Counted from the first letter of the stretch, positions 1 to 9,044 are shown. The stretch is 64,000 bases of DNA from Candidatus Bathyarchaeota archaeon (GCA_963782525.1 CAWAKC010000012.1:14703-78702); one strand, 5' to 3'. A program made the numbers and translations. The notes: generated by a model not told the origin, from the letters alone.

Positions 1-82
1 CCATGGGACAGAAGCTAACGCAGAGTGAATTGCATTTTTTGACTTTGCACTTGTCTTCGTTTAATACGGCAATTCGCGTCAT
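1..82 (-). CDS. rli: ABCE1/RLI ribosome recycling ATPase, N-terminal part (runs off the window)
   Basis: Manual translation MTRIAVLNEDKCKVKKCNSLCVSFCPM matches the ABCE1 Fe-S N-terminus (RIAV..D.C..KKC...C..FCP). Confidence 0.85.
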   Translation of the reverse strand, partial: MTRIAVLNEDKCKVKKCNSLCVSFCPM

Positions 83-257
83 GTGTGGCGTCGTTTAATG
101 ATGCCAACAGGATAGTAATAAATGTAAACCTCAAGGAAAAATAAACAAAAAGGAGAAATGGCTTTTTTCATCGGTTCAAGAAAACAACCTCAAAAACTCT
201 GGAATAAATTGAAACTTAAAAGAAAAATAATACAAAAGTGCGGTATAGGCGTTTAGT

Positions 258-329
258 TTACCATTCTTCTTCTTCCCATTCTTCATCTTCGCCTTCTTCC
301 CATTCATCTTCTTCCTCTATGAACATCAT
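258..329 (-). CDS. 23-aa acidic Glu/Trp micropeptide MMFIEEEDEWEEGEDEEWEEEEW
   Basis: Open frame ATG..TAA; SD-like GAGGTGA just upstream; TATA-like CTTAAA near 385; T-rich tract downstream. Confidence 0.6.
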   Translation of the reverse strand: MMFIEEEDEWEEGEDEEWEEEEW

Positions 330-535
330 GTGTTTTTTTCACCTCACGAATAAGTCGTATATGCTACCCTACCCTCGGCAGGGTTTAAGCGTTTAGATTC
401 GTCAACTGACGTTAAAACCGTCCAATGCAATAGGTAGAAACATGGTTTCTGCACCTTTTTTCCTATTAATTTTAGGATTTTCAGCGGTAATTTTTTAAGG
501 AAACGCCAACAAGAATGCTTCAAGAAGGCGATTGG

Positions 536-1128
536 ATGAGAAAAATCTTCAAAATAATCCTTGCAATCTTCGCAGTAGTAGTTGTTATAATAGTAGCGTT
601 CGGAGCAATCATTCAACTAGATGTAGCAGCTATCACGGCTACGGGGTCGCAAACGCTGACGCCAACTGGAACCTCCGTTGGTAAGGCATTAGTAATCTAT
701 GACCCTGGGCTATCAGGGACCGCAAAGGCGTCGCCGACAAAGTCGCCGCTGACCTGCAGGCAAAAAGCTATACTGTCACAGAGGCAGGCGTAAAAAGCCC
801 AGCAGTCGCTAACACCACAGAGTACTCAGTAGTAGTTGTCGGCGGACCCGTTTATGCAGGCGCATTGACCAGCTCAGTGAAAGACTACCTAAACAATCTA
901 TCTGCAGGTCATGCGAGTCCAAGTTACGGACCTTACATTTTTACCAGAGTTGGGGTGTTCGGAAGCGGCCAAGGTGCAACCTCTCAAAACGATATAGATA
1001 TGATCAAAAACTCCGTAACGGCGCTCTCATCAAACGGTACCTTATCGAACGCAATTGTAGTTAAAATCGGGCAGAAAGAAGATCTCAACACAAGAGCCCA
1101 AGACTTCGTAAACCAACTAGTAACTTAA
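536..1128 (+). pseudogene. Membrane-anchored flavodoxin-like protein, one frameshift near 725
   Basis: N-terminal TM helix and VIYDPGLSGTAK; the shifted frame continues GVADKVAADL...VVVGGPVYAG; one A appears missing from an A run. Confidence 0.65.
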
Positions 1129-1217
1129 AAGAGTCTATACCAACTTTACCTTTCTTTTTCAACTTCTCCGTTTTCCTCTAATCAAAATAGATAAATCCGC
1201 ACAGTCAACATTAAAGT

Positions 1218-1281
1218 GGGAATGATGTAAGGCGACGGCTTCGAGCATAAGCTGTGAGAAAACGTCAATCAACACTGACCC
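1218..1281 (+). ncRNA. C/D-box guide sRNA
   Basis: GGG...CCC terminal stem; C box ATGATGT 1222-1228; D' TCGA 1241-1244; C'-like TGTGAGA; D box CTGA 1275-1278; TATA-like AGATAAAT about 25 nt upstream. Confidence 0.7.
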
Positions 1282-1429
1282 GAAAACCTACCCGTATAAC
1301 ATACGGTAACATAGAAAAGAATCAACAGCTAAACTGTGCAAGATGCCAAATCATGGAATAATTTAAAATAACTCCTCTTGTTTATATGAAAGAAAACCAT
1401 TAAGAAAAGACGCAAGGAAGAAAATACAC

Positions 1430-1633
1430 ATGAGCGAAGAAGGCGACACATTCTGGGTATCATTAGCTGAAAGAGTCTTTGGATTAGCACTCATAATAAT
1501 TGGTGCAGTTATGATTTATTTCACAGCAACAAGCTCAAACGTTTTAGGCGGATTTACCTTGTTCTTCGGTGCATTAAGCGCCATTCTATTGATCGTGGGC
1601 ATTGTTCTGCTGCTTGTCAAACCACCAGAATAA
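1430..1633 (+). CDS. Small 2-TM membrane protein
   Basis: Two hydrophobic helices; ATG start; TTTATAT upstream. Confidence 0.7.
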   Translation: MSEEGDTFWVSLAERVFGLALIIIGAVMIYFTATSSNVLGGFTLFFGALSAILLIVGIVLLLVKPPE

Positions 1634-1639
1634 ACTTCT

Positions 1640-1956
1640 TTAGTCTCTTCTTTCAACAACAATTTTGCAGTTAGTAACTAAAGCAGCAATTACACCTAAA
1701 GCCGCCAACCATGGAGCCAAAACAAATCCAACCACACCCACAGTTGCAGGGATTTCAAGCAAAGTTTTACCTGCCTCATCCTTAACTATTACACGTGTCA
1801 CATTTCCTTCATGTAATAATTCGCCGACGCGGTAACCAAGTTTTTACCTGAAACTGTGTATTCTTCCCTTGTAAACATGGGAGCCGCAGCTCCACAAACC
1901 GTACAAAACTTGTCGTTGTTTTTTAGTGGAGCACCACATTTAACACAATATGGCAA
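1640..1956 (-). pseudogene. Zinc-ribbon + DUF4342-like protein, frameshift near 1833
   Basis: TTG start with GGTGA SD; YCVKCG...FCTVCG; the shifted frame gives ELLHEGNVTRVIVKD...LLEIPATVGVVG...PWLAALG. Confidence 0.7.
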
Positions 1957-2251
1957 ACAATCACCAATCCAAAAAAGACAGTAACAGAATAAAATGTTTT
2001 CTACCCGAGCAAAATATACAAAGTGTGGCGCAACAAAAATATACTGAGTATTTTAAGATTTCATTTTAATAAATATTTATTAAGCAGCATTATGTTGGTG
2101 CAAATTTGAAAAGAAGTCAACAGTTGCGCTCTAAATAATTTTGAAGTCAAGAAATGTCTCTAAGACACAAAGGATGCCTAAATTTTAACATAAAAGTTTT
2201 ACACAGTAGAAAAGAAAAAAGAGAAATGAAAGTTTTTTGCCGAGGTGTTAC

Positions 2252-2308
2252 TTACTTTTTCTTTGCCGGGGCTTTCTTTACTTCTTTTTTAACTGGTTTT
2301 TTTGCCAT
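2252..2308 (-). CDS. 18-aa Lys-rich micropeptide MAKKPVKKEVKKAPAKKK
   Basis: Clean ATG..TAA frame; GAGGT SD at 2316-2320; TTATAAAT TATA near 2348-2355; divergent from the histone gene. Confidence 0.65.
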   Translation of the reverse strand: MAKKPVKKEVKKAPAKKK

Positions 2309-2434
2309 TGAAATAACCTCGGGATTCAATGTATGATAGCTATTGGTATTTATAACTTGCTAAATCGAGGAGAAAACAGATAACAAAGCTTAATACTTAC
2401 TTGAAAAGAAAAAGAGACTGTGGATGAAGTTGCT

Positions 2435-2656
2435 ATGAATGAATTAGAAATATCTGTGGCTCCGATGATTAGATTATGCAAGAAAGCGGGAGCAAAAAGG
2501 GTGAGTGGGGAAGCGGCTAAGGAGCTTGCAAGAGTCCTTGATGAGATTGGCGTTAAGATTGCAAAAGAAGCATGGGATTACGCTACATATGCTGGAAGAA
2601 AGACAATTAAAGCGGAAGATATTGAAATCGCTGTTAGAAAAGTAATGGTAAAATAG
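2435..2656 (+). CDS. Archaeal histone (HMf family); alternative GTG start at 2420
   Basis: APM.RL.KKAGA.RVS and AGRKTIKAEDI histone-fold motifs. Confidence 0.95.
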   Translation: MNELEISVAPMIRLCKKAGAKRVSGEAAKELARVLDEIGVKIAKEAWDYATYAGRKTIKAEDIEIAVRKVMVK

Positions 2657-2984
2657 TTACATAATGGCACAAATGCACCTTTTCTTACCTTTCTATGAAG
2701 ATTTGTTTTAAAATCTTATTTGATTTAGGAAAAAGGAAATGAGGGTGACAGCTCCATCGAGTAGAGTGTTTCGAATTTCCCCTGAAATAATAAATCAAAG
2801 AAAATGTGTTGGCATCTTGTCAGTAAATTTTTTAGAAAGGCAGCATTTGAGAATCTAAGATAGAATTATAGCCATACAAGCAATGCCAAGTAAGCGCTTG
2901 CAACATTAATGTTCCTTAAGAAACTCAACGAATGTTAAGGCTTATAAACAAAAAACGCTAAACCACTGAACGGGGCTGAAAAAA

Positions 2985-3206
2985 TTGGTGAATGAAGAGA
3001 ACTTGGTGTCAATAAACATTAGTCGAAAAAATGGGGAAATTCGATATAAAGTAGATTGTTCTAAAAATGTGTCAAGTGATGAGTTAGCGCATTACCTGGA
3101 TGAAATAATTGAGGGCATTTGCACATGGAAACCAGAAGTTTGCGAAGAGACCATTAAAACTATAATTGGAACAATCAAAATAAAGGAAAAAAATCCCCAA
3201 AAATAA
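2985..3206 (+). CDS. Hypothetical protein
   Basis: 73-aa ORF with CTTATAAA TATA upstream. Confidence 0.5.
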   Translation: MVNEENLVSINISRKNGEIRYKVDCSKNVSSDELAHYLDEIIEGICTWKPEVCEETIKTIIGTIKIKEKNPQK

Positions 3207-3436
3207 GGCACATACTTAATTTAAACAAAAAATCAAACGAATTCCTTGGGATACCTTCCTTTCTACAAAAAGACGAAAAATTGAGGATGCTAAAAAATCC
3301 TCTTTTCGAATCATAGCATTATAGACCGGTTTTAATTAAACCAAAGTCAAATGAATACTTTGATACATGAATATTTTAATAATCATCAACCATTACAATC
3401 ATCCAGCTATCAATTGTTACAGGAGAAAAACGGAAA

Positions 3437-5221
3437 ATGCCCACGCGCCAACCAATAGTTTGTGTTTTAGGACATGTAGATGCAGGCAAAACCTCACTGC
3501 TAGATGAGTTACGAAAAACCAATGTGCAGCTTCGTGAAGCTGGAGGAATGACCCAGCACATAGGCGCGAGCTATTTCCCCGTGGAAACTCTAAAACAGCT
3601 AATTGGACCATACATGGTCAACTTTAAAACAGGCATCGAAATCCCAGGGTTACTAATCGTGGATACGCCTGGGCATGAAGCATTCACTAACCTTAGGCGC
3701 AGAGGCGGAAGCGTTGCGGACATCGCAATCCTGGTTGTTAATGCGGTGCGTGGGTTTGAAGCTCAAACCTTCGAATGTATAGATATTCTCAAAGCGCGCA
3801 AAACACCCTTCATCGTAGCGGTAAACCAAATCGACCGCATTCCTGGCTGGAAGCCTCAGCAAGGAGCGCCTTTTATGAAATCTTTTGCTGCCCAGTCAAG
3901 TTTTGTTCAGGACGAAGTAAACAATAGTCTCTACCGAGTTATGGGTGATTTTAGCCGTTTAGGTTTTAAAACTGACCGCTTTGACCATATCCGAGATTTC
4001 ACACAAAACATTGCGTTAGTTCCGACGAGCGCCAAAACTGGTGAGGGCTTATCTGAACTCGTTATGGTGTTAGTCGGATTAACTCAGCAATTCCTTAAAA
4101 AACGCCTGCAGACAACAGATGGCGCTGCAAAAGGCTCCATTTTGGAAGTTAAAGAGGAACCAGGCTTGGGAATGACACTCAATGCGATTGTCTATGACGG
4201 CACTCTTCATCGAGATGATTTGATTGTTGTCGGCGGCAAAAACGGGCCAATTTCGGCACGCGTACGAACGATTCTGGTTCCTAAACCACTCGATGAGATG
4301 CGTGACCCTCGCGACAAATTCACAAGCGTCGACTGTGTCTATGCAAGTGCTGGTGTCAAAATTGTTGCCCCAGACCTGGATGGCGCATTGGCTGGTGCAC
4401 CATTATTTGCTGTTCCTGAAGGTGAAGACGTCTCCAAATACTGCAAGCTCATCACTGAAGAAATTGGTAGAATCAGAATAACTAAGGAAATCGATGGAGT
4501 CATCGTGAAAGCGGACACTTTAGGTTCACTTGAGGCCATGGCTGAAATCTTAAAAGCCAACAATATCCAAGTCCGTATCGCCGACATCGGCGACATCAGC
4601 AAACGCGACGTCATCGAAGCTTCCGTGGTGAAGACGCGTCAACCTTTAGTCGGTGCAATCTTAGCATTCGGTGTAAAAGTATTGCCTGATGCTGAAATTG
4701 AAGCTGAGGCAAATGGAGTTAAAATCTTCAAGGACCCAATCATCTATAACCTAATCGACAACTACTTGGAATGGGCAAAGAATAAGCGAGAAGCTAAAAG
4801 CGAAGAGGAATTTGAAAGACTTGTTAAACCGGGAAAAGTCACTGTGCTGCCCAACTGCATTTTCCGCCGCGCTAAACCATTAGTGGTTGGCGTGGAAGTC
4901 TTAGCGGGCAGACTAAAACCAAAAGTTTCTCTTATGCGCGCAGAAGACAGCTCAGATTTAGGTGAAGTGGATCAGATTCAAGATCAAGGTAAAGCAATCG
5001 GTGAAGCTAAAGCAGGGATGCAGGTGGCGATTTCTATGGATAAACCAATTGCTGGACGCCATGTGTTCGAGAAGGATGTTTTGTATGTTAAGGTCCCTGA
5101 AGCTGATGCAAAAAAACTGTTAACGGCACATATGGATGACTTAACCAGCGAAGAGCAGGATCTGCTTAAAGAGTTCATTGCGTTCATGCGCAAGAAGACC
5201 CTGTTCTGGGCTGGAGTCTAA
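3437..5221 (+). CDS. infB: Translation initiation factor aIF5B (IF-2)
   Basis: GHVDAGKT, EAGGMTQHIGA, DTPGHEAFTNLRRRGGS, KADTLGSLEA. Confidence 0.98.
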   Translation: MPTRQPIVCVLGHVDAGKTSLLDELRKTNVQLREAGGMTQHIGASYFPVETLKQLIGPYMVNFKTGIEIPGLLIVDTPGHEAFTNLRRRGGSVADIAILVVNAVRGFEAQTFECIDILKARKTPFIVAVNQIDRIPGWKPQQGAPFMKSFAAQSSFVQDEVNNSLYRVMGDFSRLGFKTDRFDHIRDFTQNIALVPTSAKTGEGLSELVMVLVGLTQQFLKKRLQTTDGAAKGSILEVKEEPGLGMTLNAIVYDGTLHRDDLIVVGGKNGPISARVRTILVPKPLDEMRDPRDKFTSVDCVYASAGVKIVAPDLDGALAGAPLFAVPEGEDVSKYCKLITEEIGRIRITKEIDGVIVKADTLGSLEAMAEILKANNIQVRIADIGDISKRDVIEASVVKTRQPLVGAILAFGVKVLPDAEIEAEANGVKIFKDPIIYNLIDNYLEWAKNKREAKSEEEFERLVKPGKVTVLPNCIFRRAKPLVVGVEVLAGRLKPKVSLMRAEDSSDLGEVDQIQDQGKAIGEAKAGMQVAISMDKPIAGRHVFEKDVLYVKVPEADAKKLLTAHMDDLTSEEQDLLKEFIAFMRKKTLFWAGV

Positions 5222-5372
5222 AAACATTAGTTGGCTAAGAAAGAGCAAACGCCCTTTCTCCCCCTTCCACAATTTTTTTGTTTATCCGTTGAAAAAGTCA
5301 ATAAACTTTAGTCCATTAGGTTTCTCCGCTGAAATCTATTAGGATTCAAATTTGTTGGCTCTACTAAAAACT

Positions 5373-6422
5373 TCAACCTATCAGTTTCTTTAGAACTGGC
5401 ACTTTTTGGAAGGGAAGAATAATTCCAAGGCAGATAAACAGAGTAACCACTGTTATCAATGGGACCTCGATTATGGAATTCAAGGTGTTTCCGCTGATGG
5501 TGAAGCCCCATAAATAGCCTCTTTGTAATGTTTCAAGGACGATTACGTGAAACAGGAAAATCGCTAGGGTGCTTTTGCTGATTTGCCTTAGTAGCCAATT
5601 AATTTTTGGATGAGGCGCTTCTGCGGGGTTTGCTGGAACATTAAGAGTGTTTAGGAGCAGAAATAGCATGACTGCGGATAAAATCGTTGTTGGGCTAAAG
5701 TAGTCTTGGAAGAAATAAGTTTGCGGACCCCCAACCGTAGCAGCTATCGCGTAGGTTCCAACGGCTGTCAAAACTAATCCGAGAGCCAGCAACCCCAGCA
5801 GAGTTGAACGCTTTAATTTTACCGATAAAAGAAAAACCCCCAGCAAAAAGTATCCTACCCACAGAGGAATCGTTAGAAGGTTACTGTCTATATGGAATGC
5901 TCCAAACAATCCAGGGACAGGTGATATGATTGCTCCAAAGAACCATACACCCAGAAAATACTTGAATGTCTCGCGGTTTACATGAGCTACCACTACTCGT
6001 AGGATTGGTGTAAAAAGATACAGACCCACCAGCATGTAGAGGTACCAGAACTGGTAGTAGGGACCTGACAGAATGCCTTGGGCGATGAAGCTTGAGGTAA
6101 GGGCTATGTTGTCAGCGAAATAGTCCCATGCAAAATAGATGGCGCCCCAAAACAGGAAAGGTAGCCCTATGCGTGCCCAACGTTTCTTGAAGAAAACGCT
6201 CAACGGTTCAGTCTTGGATGGTTGAAGCAGAAGAGCACCCGTCAACATAACAAACAATGGAACTCCCGTTCGCCCCAAGGTTTGGTAAATATTAACTGCC
6301 CACCAACGGTAAATTTCAGCTTGATTCATCACTTGAGGAGCTATTCCCTCGTTGGCTGCGTGGAGCAGAATAACACCTACAATAGCGATAGTGCGAATTA
6401 GGTCCACTGGAATAGCGTGCAA
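5373..6422 (-). CDS. Acyltransferase family 3 (WecH-like) membrane O-acyltransferase
   Basis: DLIRTIAIVGVILLH, VPLFVMLTG, FWYLY; about 10 TM helices. Confidence 0.9.
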   Translation of the reverse strand: MHAIPVDLIRTIAIVGVILLHAANEGIAPQVMNQAEIYRWWAVNIYQTLGRTGVPLFVMLTGALLLQPSKTEPLSVFFKKRWARIGLPFLFWGAIYFAWDYFADNIALTSSFIAQGILSGPYYQFWYLYMLVGLYLFTPILRVVVAHVNRETFKYFLGVWFFGAIISPVPGLFGAFHIDSNLLTIPLWVGYFLLGVFLLSVKLKRSTLLGLLALGLVLTAVGTYAIAATVGGPQTYFFQDYFSPTTILSAVMLFLLLNTLNVPANPAEAPHPKINWLLRQISKSTLAIFLFHVIVLETLQRGYLWGFTISGNTLNSIIEVPLITVVTLFICLGIILPFQKVPVLKKLIG

Positions 6423-6533
6423 TCTCTCTTGAATCAGCTTTTACACCCTTTGCTTGATACCCTCAGAAGGCATTTTACGCTAATAAGATTTAACTTAAAT
6501 TGGAGAATTAAGATACGTTTCTTGATCGAGCAG

Positions 6534-7208
6534 CTAACTGGAGTTTTGTTGGCTTATAACACGGTATATTTCGTTGGCGATTAATTGTGATCCGTCGGGG
6601 TCAGGGTGAACGCCGTCAGGAAAAAACTGGGAACAATTAGAAAGAGCTGAATGCACATCAATTACAGGCGTATTGGTCTGTTGTGCAACCTGGTCTACTC
6701 CAGGAATAGTGTTGGTCTCTAAAAATTCAGCGCTTGGCGTTGATCCATTACAGAAAACTGGCGGGGGCTTAACAAGCCAGATCTTTGGCGGGGTTGAAAG
6801 CGCTTGGAACGCTTCAACCAAGCTCACGTAGCCGGCAACAAAGCTTCCGTTATTTGGAGTAATAATCGCGTTGGCATCGTTTGTTCCCAACATAATTATC
6901 ACTATGTTAGGCTGAAACTGTTTTGCCCTCTGAAACTCGATTTGGTGCATGTATGGGCTTAACGAATCAAGAGAGGCTGCAGTTCCACCAACGCCGAAAT
7001 TATCTACAGTATAGTTTGAGCCAAGCAACATCCACAGGTCATCTGGATAATAAGTTCCTCCAGTAATACTGTCGCCGACACATGCAACTCTAATCTTATC
7101 TGACGAATTATCTTTACTTCCTGACAACATGAAAAACGATGTAGCCCCTGAAAGAGTAACTAGAAGGACTAAACCGATCGCCAACAACGTTAATTTCTTC
7201 TTATTCAT
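6534..7208 (-). CDS. Membrane-anchored SGNH/GDSL hydrolase
   Basis: GDSIT, NFGVGG, LGTND, DGVHP blocks; N-terminal TM helix. Confidence 0.9.
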   Translation of the reverse strand: MNKKKLTLLAIGLVLLVTLSGATSFFMLSGSKDNSSDKIRVACVGDSITGGTYYPDDLWMLLGSNYTVDNFGVGGTAASLDSLSPYMHQIEFQRAKQFQPNIVIIMLGTNDANAIITPNNGSFVAGYVSLVEAFQALSTPPKIWLVKPPPVFCNGSTPSAEFLETNTIPGVDQVAQQTNTPVIDVHSALSNCSQFFPDGVHPDPDGSQLIANEIYRVISQQNSS

Positions 7209-7473
7209 TTTACGCTCTCGCAGTACGTTAAAGCTTAATCTGCTAAAGTAAAATCCCACTATCCATTAAACTTACCGAGAAAACTAAGGATTCTACTTGG
7301 TTAAAGCCTCAACCAGATTTGCGATTTCCAACATTCATTTTCCTTAAAATCAAAACCCTGTAATCTAAAGTTGAGAGCGAGTTTTCACTTAAGGTATTTT
7401 TCGATAAAGCTTTAAATTCTGCAAAAGTCAGAGAAAAGGTGCAAACCAACCCATCAAGAGTTGGTTTTTATTT

Positions 7474-7586
7474 GCCGGGGTATCCTAGCCAGGCAGGGAG
7501 CAAGCCTGGAGATGCACCTTAAAGGGGCACCAATTAGCTTGTGGCCTCTCGGGGCCGCGGGGGTTCAAATCCCCCTCCCGGCGCCA
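7474..7586 (+). tRNA. tRNA-Ser(GGA) with 24-nt intron at 37/38 (7512-7535), CCA encoded
   Basis: Cloverleaf with long variable arm, TTCAAAT T-loop, CAAGC/GCTTG anticodon stem, bulge-helix-bulge-like intron junction. Confidence 0.9.
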
Positions 7587-7904
7587 TTTTACTGGTTGGG
7601 GGTTGTTTTTGAGCTTATTTTGTCTAAAATCTACATATTTTAAGTTATTTTAAATTAGTGATTTGCTTCATTTGAAATCTTGCAAAAGCAGGAGGCGATC
7701 AGTTAATCGATGATTAGAGGAAGCCAAGATAATTTGCATGCAAGCAACTTCTTTGAACCCCTAAACAGGGAAGGGAATAGCACCTCAAGTCAGATGCCCA
7801 TCCCCATACCGAAACTGGGTCAAAACATTTTTTCTTGAATAGGGGCGCGGCGCTCTTATCATAAGGCACAAATGACGTTACATAGAAGAAAATGGGGCGG
7901 GTGC

Positions 7905-9044
7905 TCATGCGTTTTCCGTAGCGGCTTCTACTATTTTCTTGATTTCAGCGTTTAGAGTGTCTGGTAGTCCAAGTATCCCTACGTCCATGAAACCGCGTAT
8001 AATCACAGAAACGGCTTGATCGCGTGACAGTTTTCGCGTCATAAGATAAGTTATTTCTTTTTCTGAGATTTTTCCCACCGCTGCTTCATGCGTTATCTCC
8101 ACACCTTTCTTTTTAGCGATAAGCTCAGGAATAGATTGCATAAACGATTCATTGTCCATCAGTAAGCCGCGGCATTCCAAGTGTCCCTTGCAGTCGTTGC
8201 TGTCGCCTTCTATCATGCCTCGGATGATCATTTTTGAGCCCTCACGAGAAATGGCACGACTAATCATCTCTACCTTGCTTCCCTTTCCAGTCAGAACAGC
8301 CTTTGTTCCAATGTCCAACTGAGAGTTTTTGTATCCGTAGAGAATGCTGTTGAAGCTTGCCCGTGAGTCTTCTCCATTGCAGTATGCTACAGGATACATT
8401 TGAATGTCCTTTACGGGGCGCATGCATACATAGTTCGATACGAATGTTGCTTTGTCAGCTATTTCGGTTGCGCTTCTCGGTCGGACAAGGGTGCTCTCGC
8501 TCCATTGATGAATCATTGTGAAGTTGAGCGTAGCGCCTTTTTTGACGTAAATTTCGGATACGCCTAGGTGCGCCGCGTTTTTAACCGTTGAGTGTTGAAG
8601 GCAACTGGTGATTATGTGTGAGTTTGAACCTTCCTCAGCGATTATGATATTGTGTACTCTTTGTTCAATATTCTTCTGAGTGATCATCATGCATGATTGG
8701 AGCGGAAACGTCACTTCGGCGCCGGGAAGAATCCGCATGAAATAGCCTCCGCTATAGTCCTCAGCCACTTTCTTGGTGAATTCGTCCTTGTTTTTGTCAA
8801 CTATTTTCCACATATAATCGTTAAGCCAAGAGTACTTTTTCAGAGCTGTCTTAATGTCCAGTAGCTCGATTTTTTCTTCGAAAAGCTGGTTTACCTTTGC
8901 TTGGACAGTTGTTTGATCCAAGTGGAAATAAGTGGCTGAACGGTTTTTGTCGTCTGATTCAATGCCAGCTTTTTGCGCCTCTTCAAGAATTTTATGTGGA
9001 ACTTTTGTCAATTCATTTTCTGTTGTCAGTTTTCCAGCCTCCAA
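7905..9044 (-). CDS. sufB: SufB/SufD-family Fe-S assembly scaffold (SmsB-type)
   Basis: FPLQSC, VHNIIIAEEG, GHLECRGL, THEAAVGKI. Confidence 0.9.
   Translation of the reverse strand: MEAGKLTTENELTKVPHKILEEAQKAGIESDDKNRSATYFHLDQTTVQAKVNQLFEEKIELLDIKTALKKYSWLNDYMWKIVDKNKDEFTKKVAEDYSGGYFMRILPGAEVTFPLQSCMMITQKNIEQRVHNIIIAEEGSNSHIITSCLQHSTVKNAAHLGVSEIYVKKGATLNFTMIHQWSESTLVRPRSATEIADKATFVSNYVCMRPVKDIQMYPVAYCNGEDSRASFNSILYGYKNSQLDIGTKAVLTGKGSKVEMISRAISREGSKMIIRGMIEGDSNDCKGHLECRGLLMDNESFMQSIPELIAKKKGVEITHEAAVGKISEKEITYLMTRKLSRDQAVSVIIRGFMDVGILGLPDTLNAEIKKIVEAATENA

Follow-up and report, generated by a model that had tools for sequence, protein, structure and literature searches.

Linker histone H1 joins a winged-helix globular domain of about 70–80 residues to a C-terminal domain in which the motif S/T-P-K-K is often present, and it binds linker DNA and compacts chromatin. 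H1-like proteins that do without the globular domain are tens to hundreds of residues long. Two published accounts describe charge as the means by which they bind DNA or chromatin (PMC8015243, PMC9769792). For archaea, a review reports that homologues of linker histones are not known and that the histones are mostly tail-less, and it notes one tailed Bathyarchaeota histone (PMC6136690). Lysine-rich N-terminal tails that are fused to the histone fold are known from Asgard archaea, for which a preprint gives a length of about 16–32 amino acids, a lysine content of more than 30% and a pI of about 10.5 (bioRxiv 10.64898/2026.07.02.735847). Because archaeal histones mostly have no tails and an archaeal linker histone is missing, how such tail-less, linker-less chromatin tunes its packing is an open question.

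Bathyarchaeia are among the most abundant uncultured archaea of soils and sediments. In a stretch of 64,000 nucleotides from the genome of one of them (G000:C12:14703-78702; hereafter, the window), an initial annotation had singled out a very short lysine-rich frame next to a histone gene as either a histone tail supplied in trans or a minimal linker-histone analogue. An 18-residue oligolysine gene that accompanies a variant histone offers a concrete and cheap way into the question of packing, and we describe here its signals, relatives and genomic surroundings.

Organisation of the micro-gene

The micro-gene occupies the minus strand of the window (Table 1), where its ATG (2308–2306) and its TAA (2254–2252) are read directly. 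Apart from nine lysines, its 18 codons specify methionine, three alanines, two prolines, two valines and one glutamate, and the resulting peptide is predicted to be unstructured with a net charge of about +8. The initial annotation had described an 18-residue frame with nine lysines, a GAGGT Shine–Dalgarno sequence and a TATA box that lies head-to-head with the histone gene at a distance of about 125 bp. All of this can be read directly, the two start codons being 126 nt apart with the histone ATG at 2435. When ATG frames of 12–80 amino acids were counted across the whole source genome (2.87 Mb, 43% G+C, 96% complete), 13 contained at least 40% lysine, and the micro-gene, at 50%, was the richest of them. 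That the frame is not a product of chance is shown far more forcefully by its recurrence, with matching signals and location, in many other species.

The GAGGT element (2320–2316) is located seven bases 5′ of the ATG and is complementary to the 3′ end of the genome's own 16S rRNA, GGATCACCTCCT. It is part of a 7-bp inverted repeat, the two arms of which bracket the micro-gene (Table 1). In histone-linked copies, the ribosome-binding site lies within CCGAGG(T) and the stop codon is followed a few bases later by (A)CCTCGG; the 3′ CCTCGG is missing from most of the ferritin-linked copies described below. RNAalifold returned CCGAGG/CCUCGG as the sole consensus stem, invariant except for a C to U change in three sequences in which a G·U pair is kept; as the stem practically never varies, this is conservation without support from covariation. 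By pairing with the ribosome-binding site, the 3′ CCTCGG may dampen translation, affect its timing or make the short mRNA more stable; masking of that site and protection of the two ends of a very short transcript are likewise conceivable roles for the stem.

Further upstream, the TATA box TTATAAATA (2355–2347) lies 47 nt 5′ of the micro-gene ATG. It belongs to a block, AGCAA-R-TT-W-TAAATA, which is kept between genera and which, going by the archaeal promoter consensus, we take to be the promoter. A degenerate version of this 15-mer occurs four times in the source genome, and two of the occurrences are those of the two micro-gene copies. On the other side of the gene, the alignment between species falls apart 3′ of the T-run. 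The micro-gene therewith appears to have a promoter, a ribosome-binding site and a terminator of its own.

Elsewhere in the window, a 52-aa zinc-ribbon frame (1798–1956) and a 53-aa DUF4342 frame (1640–1801) overlap by four bases on the minus strand (1640–1956 in all) and could represent either two paired genes or a single gene that has been split. Positions 238–396 are of low complexity on both strands, with Ser/His runs on one and Glu/Trp/Asp runs on the other.

Table 1 Features of the micro-gene locus and of related loci. Positions are those of the window unless a contig of the source genome (G000) or another locus is named.
Feature	Position	Strand	Remarks
Micro-gene, histone-linked 'type I' paralogue	2252..2308	−	18 codons + TAA, 9 Lys; conserved with ATG/GTG switches
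CCGAGGT, ribosome-binding site (GAGGT) and 5′ arm of inverted repeat	2316..2322	−	GAGG invariant in 31 of 31 sequences of alignment A1
ACCTCGG, 3′ arm of inverted repeat	2240..2246	−	Complementary to the ribosome-binding site; 5 nt past the stop; in histone-linked copies
Putative promoter, BRE-like AGCAAG + TATA box TTATAAATA	2347..2361	−	Conserved across genera; function presumed from consensus
T-rich run, likely archaeal intrinsic terminator	2208..2230	−	T-runs 3′ of every copy
Histone gene, 73 aa	2435..2656	+	Fast-evolving paralogue travelling with the micro-gene; Pfam PF00808 CBFD_NFYB_HMF, E 8e-13
Probable histone-gene TATA box, TTAATAC	2390..2396	+	About 40 nt 5′ of the ATG
Second histone paralogue	G000:C1:599809-600024	−	
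Second micro-gene copy	G000:C4:119034-119084 (locus L207:3035-3085)	−	nhmmer E 6e-14
Ferritin-like gene, example	L187:2220-3209	+	22 other loci
Ferritin-like gene, source genome	G000:C5:5164-6144		
Ribosomal-protein tails	G000:C1:194001-203000 (L267)		
Ribosomal-protein tails	G000:C11:123001-124000 (L268)		
Ribosomal-protein tails	G000:C9:204001-205000 (L269)		

Coding potential and conservation within the genus

Histone loci from 60 relatives contained this small frame in 8 of 31 cases, and a strict back-translated pattern matched 38 of 120 genomes of the genus, its reversed control giving no matches. The view of the initial annotation that the ORF is a conserved, independently transcribed small gene is upheld by this count and by the putative promoter and terminator, insofar as sequence comparison can speak to it. 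A second pattern, composed of the last eight codons and CTCGG after the stop, was run against one genome per species for 185,579 species and returned 43 loci. Forty-one of these are labelled Candidatus Bathyarchaeota or Bathyarchaeia (bog, palsa, fen-type and soil MAGs), and the other two are bacterial and correspond to the ends of long unrelated frames. The first half of the frame, which this pattern leaves unconstrained, opens with an in-frame ATG or GTG in all 40 archaeal loci read. A loose pattern made of the flanks only matched as often as its reversed control, so that its count is worthless; it supplied extra variants.

The 54 distinct coding sequences encode 29 distinct peptides and have only three lengths: 54 nt (11 sequences), 57 nt (38) and 60 nt (5). 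Among the 38 sequences with 18 codons, 18 start with ATG and 20 with GTG; all nine lysine codons are kept, with AAA/AAG variation only; the Ala-2 codon is GCT, GCA, GCC or GCG in 7, 11, 9 and 9 cases, respectively; all four CCN codons are in use for Pro-14; and the variable sites at codon positions 1, 2 and 3 number 6, 5 and 11. The stop codon is TAA, with TAG in a few distant copies. Since the collecting expression demanded lysine at codons 3–4 and 16–18 (five of the nine) and at least eight lysines in total, the lysine counts are partly circular, a circularity of which the start, alanine, proline and length evidence is free. On this comparative evidence, the coding status of the 18-codon frame is close to settled.

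Across copies, the residues other than lysine all come from a set of eight: Ala, Pro, Val, Glu, Gly, Thr, Ser and Asp. This limitation to small or acidic residues, together with a length of 13–21 amino acids in most copies, argues for selection on the peptide, whose length is held near 13–21 residues and in which lysine is kept while only small or acidic residues are tolerated between the lysine pairs.

Three other explanations of the conserved stretch were rejected. A structured non-coding RNA was discarded on three counts: a search with Rfam 15 at E values of up to 1 gave no match in positions 1–8000 of the window save a tRNA at 7474–7583, the fold energy of the micro-gene RNA equals that of shuffled sequence (z −0.06), and the stem found by RNAalifold is invariant. 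A detached piece of a longer gene is at odds with the terminator directly 3′, with the end of the alignment at that point and with the lack of a conserved downstream frame. An antisense frame of 60 aa (2154–2336, plus strand) lies partly in sequence that cannot be aligned between species. The micro-gene is, as these comparisons indicate, a real and conserved gene of soil and peat Bathyarchaeia.

As a separate observation, the tRNA match at 7474–7583, which is on the plus strand, spans 110 bases compared to the 71 positions of the model, which suggests that this tRNA gene contains an intron.

Representation in RNA libraries

In metatranscriptomes, 4–9% of the sampled words were present in five runs from four studies, and four of these runs were aligned at 85% likeness. 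Short contigs from the runs of three studies cover the micro-gene at 85–95% likeness (for example, positions 2204–2330 with six differences), which shows that the micro-gene sequence of relatives is present in RNA libraries; these contigs give no strand, ends or level. One contig extends from inside the micro-gene across both promoters into the histone gene, and because it spans the two divergent promoters, DNA carry-over into the RNA libraries is possible. Stretches without metatranscriptome cover carry no evidential weight. The micro-gene is probably well expressed.

Pairing with a histone variant

At the promoter of the histone gene, the block AAGCTTAATAC is kept in seven of eight aligned loci, and the histone itself begins directly at its fold both in the window and in relatives. 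A histone gene lies at most 1.5 kb from the micro-gene in 28 of 30 loci of the genus. In 22 of these 28 loci the two genes are head-to-head about 130 nt apart, in four they diverge at 420–770 nt, and in two they are in tandem on the same strand; one of the two loci lacking a histone is at a contig end. Eight of ten further copies in the genus are histone-paired, and three of these copies share a single genome of 3.5 Mb. Two other genera, g36 and g44, show the pairing as well, in each case together with the 3′ CCTCGG, and the pairing has outlasted a local inversion and duplications. A scan of histone flanks for lysine-rich small frames, as the initial annotation had proposed, gave none in 20 genomes from eleven other families of the order.

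In a tree of 77 histones (73 columns), 40 of the 45 linked histones fall into one long-branched group, the support for which (84/75) is not strong, and this group is separate from the near-invariant paralogue of the same genus. Identity between species is 72–93% for the histone on the micro-gene side, whereas the other paralogue (Table 1) is almost invariant across the genus. With the same net charge as unlinked histones (2.7 versus 2.3), the linked histone is not marked as a special partner of a polycation. No fused lysine-rich tail was found in the 20 histones of the class with the longest open frames. The pairing seems to go back to a single ancient event and to have been inherited ever since, so that the many paired loci are not independent and should preferably be scored once.

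A wider family of oligolysine genes

The second copy in the source genome (Table 1) has 16 codons, ten of them for lysine, and a GTG start, and it shares its promoter block, GAGGT and T-run with the window copy. A gene for a 275-aa membrane protein diverges from it, with a dihydropteroate-synthase-like gene (TIGR00284) and pyrD/pyrK-like genes nearby. A sequence-only covariance model (R1), which was built from 31 sequences and runs from promoter to terminator, matched 76 of 151 genomes and 47 of 70 genera of the family, most matches being of full model length; as the filters were strict, its misses are not absences. Of 30 loci read, 29 have a start codon, mostly GTG, that is led by GAGG and opens a lysine-rich frame of 13–20 aa in which lysine is accompanied by Ala, Gly, Pro, Thr, Glu, Val or Ser. 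One copy (L236:1498–1641, plus strand), with GAGT instead of GAGG and a 1-nt deletion in its run of lysine codons, is either decaying or the product of a homopolymer sequencing error.

Matches of R1 extend to other families. In the same order, 9 of 60 genomes of family f7 have a match, and four of six inspected contain such frames of 15–21 aa; in family f11, there are matches in 2 of 47 genomes and such a frame in neither of the two inspected. In families listed only as being of the same class, matches occur in 7 of 71 genomes of f24, where four of seven inspected hold frames of 20 or 27–28 aa, and in 2 of 59 genomes of f35, where the loci inspected contain one doubtful frame. The f24 frames start with Met-Ala/Val-Lys-Lys and end with Lys-Lys-Lys, and one has the TATA block of the window's family. 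Several other R1 matches in other families are Lys/Ala/Pro-rich ends of longer proteins. A narrow protein-level pattern that was run across the class had no matches in families other than the window's, which is a limit of that pattern given that R1 found relatives there. Oligolysine peptides of 13–28 residues are thus spread through one family of Bathyarchaeia and present, as weaker relatives, in at least two others.

At one locus of an f24 genome (L274, about 1500–1600, plus strand), R1 matched the Lys-rich half of a 24-codon frame that has a Cys-Gly run first and a Lys/Glu-rich end, followed by a T-run.

The initial annotation had put the locus forward as a candidate for an undescribed system, and our full-text searches of the literature found no description of such oligolysine peptides; catalogues of small frames (e.g. 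PMC11364881) may hold them. The family is apparently undescribed.

Ancestral context of the micro-gene

In most other genera of the family, the micro-gene is situated between a divergent membrane-protein gene and a co-directional gene for a 326-aa tandem ferritin-like protein. Across 30 family loci, a ferritin-like gene is the neighbour in 23 and a histone in four, the search for histones around ferritin-type loci having reached about 1.5–2 kb. The membrane protein gives a weak ECF-S-type match under the Pfam cut-off. The ferritin-like protein has two bacterioferritin-like domains (Pfam Ferritin, E 1e-37) and bacterioferritins as its best PDB matches, with Dps models remaining under the cut-off. 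Its gene has a conserved BRE/TATA of its own about 50 nt 5′ of the ATG, and the micro-gene is therefore not its leader. The second copy in the source genome keeps the membrane-protein neighbour, and the ferritin-like gene of that genome is on another contig. Four copies from f7 adjoin neither of these two genes nor a histone.

On this distribution, the ancestral micro-gene locus is without a histone link and is flanked by the membrane-protein and tandem bacterioferritin-like genes. Because most genera carry the micro-gene at that locus, the histone-linked form is a derived paralogue; the copy in the window belongs to it, and its distribution covers three genera or more. The histone partnership claimed at the outset consequently holds for the genus, for g36 and g44 and for the extra copies, but it does not describe the family, which is older and wider and mostly keeps company with the ferritin-like gene.

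Discussion

Our preferred reading, which we put forward tentatively and at somewhat less than an even chance, is that the peptide is an abundant free polycation that acts on DNA and histone fibres. It would be made in quantity and bind the phosphates of nucleic acids without sequence preference. The copy in the window would most likely act on DNA wrapped by its partner, the fast-evolving tail-less histone variant, where it would neutralise charge and promote closer packing or bridging, as a fused lysine-rich tail or the H1 C-terminal domain does, only as a separate molecule. This reading is favoured by the long-kept pairing with a variant histone and by a size and composition like those of fused Asgard tails and of H1-type Lys/Ala/Pro sequence. 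It has to accommodate the histone-free ancestral context, the lack of a fused form among the 20 histones, the absence of lysine-rich small frames beside the histones of 20 genomes from other families, the equal charge of linked and unlinked histones and the likeness of ribosomal-protein tails.

Since ribosomal proteins of this organism carry similar Lys/Ala/Pro tails, a role at RNA or the ribosome is as easy to argue as DNA binding. In the source genome, the proteins uL24 (domain 8–121 of 230 aa), eL32 (23–128 of 186), uL29 (4–61 of 95), eL31 and eL13 have long Lys/Ala/Pro/Glu-rich tails outside their Pfam domains, and the uL24 tail of about 110 residues contains stretches that closely resemble the window peptide. 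The micro-peptide could then be a trans version of such extensions, its adjacency to a histone being a historical accident. An autonomous gene in at least three different contexts is what might be expected of a general housekeeping factor, and eL41, Thx and bL37 are examples of tiny basic peptides that serve as ribosomal components. However, eL41, Thx and bL37/bS22 are Arg-rich and have aromatic residues, and the window peptide has neither. A profile of 12 members matched no PDB chain at E values of up to 10, archaeal ribosomes included, and none of the loci read had a ribosomal-protein cluster around the micro-gene. About half of the family genomes are without a match, which is odd for a core part of the ribosome, even if the filters were strict. 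A search with Pfam PF05162 (eL41) gave nothing over the cut-off in the genome, which says little because 14 control genomes, archaea included, were empty too. On balance, we consider a ribosome- or RNA-associated polycation less likely than the chromatin reading, but a competitor to be taken seriously.

It is improbable that the frame is a cis-regulatory device in which translation of lysine codons senses the supply of Lys-tRNA or ribosomes and controls termination or the neighbouring promoters. The small frame with an immediate terminator does have the layout of an attenuator, the 3′ CCTCGG is able to pair with the ribosome-binding site, and the lysine codons are the most conserved feature of the frame. 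Yet the downstream genes vary with context, the ferritin-like gene 3′ of the ancestral copy has its own BRE/TATA, and no lysine-pathway genes are among the neighbours. No alternative hairpins were found, the z-score being near zero and the sole consensus stem being without covariation, and the restriction of residues and of length in most copies points to selection at the level of the peptide.

The ancestral neighbourhood suggests another partner. Some Dps proteins bind DNA via a lysine-rich tail, and the micro-peptide could be such a tail made as a separate molecule for the bacterioferritin/Dps-like protein, or it could bind a polyanion (polyphosphate or an iron-phosphate core) and organise polyphosphate in the manner of AlgP. 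The position directly 5′ of the tandem ferritin-like gene at 23 of 30 loci, in many genera, and the weak Dps matches under the cut-off speak for this, and for AlgP, which is H1-like and rich in Lys, Ala and Pro, one report describes an association with polyphosphate granules (PMC9239181). The two genes have separate promoters, though, and in the genus of the window they have parted, the micro-gene remaining in place and the ferritin-like gene now lying elsewhere. The f7 copies are without a ferritin-like neighbour as well, and we think the idea quite improbable.

Hardly tenable, finally, is an untranslated element, that is, a conserved promoter with a purine-rich short RNA or a decaying remnant whose frame is a by-product of T-poor sequence. 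In its favour, stop codons are few in any frame of a purine-rich stretch, and in distant copies conservation is higher in the promoter than in the body. Against it, an ATG or GTG start is retained at constant spacing from GAGG (none of 31 sequences departs from T60, G61 and G62), every length class is divisible by three, fourfold sites have reached saturation although codon positions 1 and 2 are fixed, a TAA or TAG stop is kept, and Rfam matches and excess structure are missing.

The reading as a free polycation on histone-bound DNA can be taken further. In some archaea, a basic 'tail' or 'linker' function of chromatin might reside in a separate oligolysine micro-protein whose gene is passed on together with that of a variant histone. 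Such a micro-protein would represent a forerunner of, or an alternative to, fused tails and H1, and the family as a whole would furnish a gene-encoded polycation that serves DNA, ribosomes or a Dps-like ferritin. We regard this broader proposition as doubtful. If the target is the ribosome or the ferritin-like protein, the peptide would still be a new small component of a central machine, and, whatever its target, a class-wide set of tiny Bathyarchaeia genes is missed by gene callers and a possible protein-encoded counter-ion joins the polyamines and Mg2+ that are usually considered.

Comparison with known systems

The ribosomal peptides eL41, Thx and bL37/bS22 are likewise tiny and highly basic, and they too are products of stand-alone genes that gene callers easily overlook. 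Leader-peptide attenuators of the trpL and hisL type also consist of a small frame enriched in one codon and a terminator that follows it; they differ from the micro-gene, which has no common downstream operon and no alternative hairpins and whose downstream gene has its own promoter.

The H1 C-terminal domain and the H1-like proteins of kinetoplastids, Toxoplasma (TgH1-like) and bacteria (AlgP) are, like the window peptide, rich in Lys, Ala and Pro, disordered, basic and devoid of a globular domain. In contrast to them, the window peptide is archaeal, measures 18 residues and has no S/T-P-K-K motif. The resemblance is one of composition, the sequence being too short and of too low complexity for homology to show. 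With no globular domain, and with all relatives at 13–28 residues, the micro-peptide is not a member of the linker histone family (Pfam Linker_histone).

Fused archaeal tails, as in Asgard HLoB/HMpB, Heimdallarchaeota LC_3 and one Bathyarchaeota histone, B23, are similar in length and composition to the 18 residues and 50% lysine seen here. The window peptide, on the other hand, comes from a separate gene on the opposite strand with what appear to be its own promoter and terminator, and most members of its family are not adjacent to a histone; not being fused to a histone fold, it is not a tailed histone. For the initial proposal of a tail supplied in trans or a minimal linker-histone analogue, the match in size and lysine content to fused Asgard tails is in favour; the peptide does not belong to the linker-histone family. 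By analogy, the micro-peptide may nonetheless work as the domain-less H1-like proteins do, or as a detached tail.
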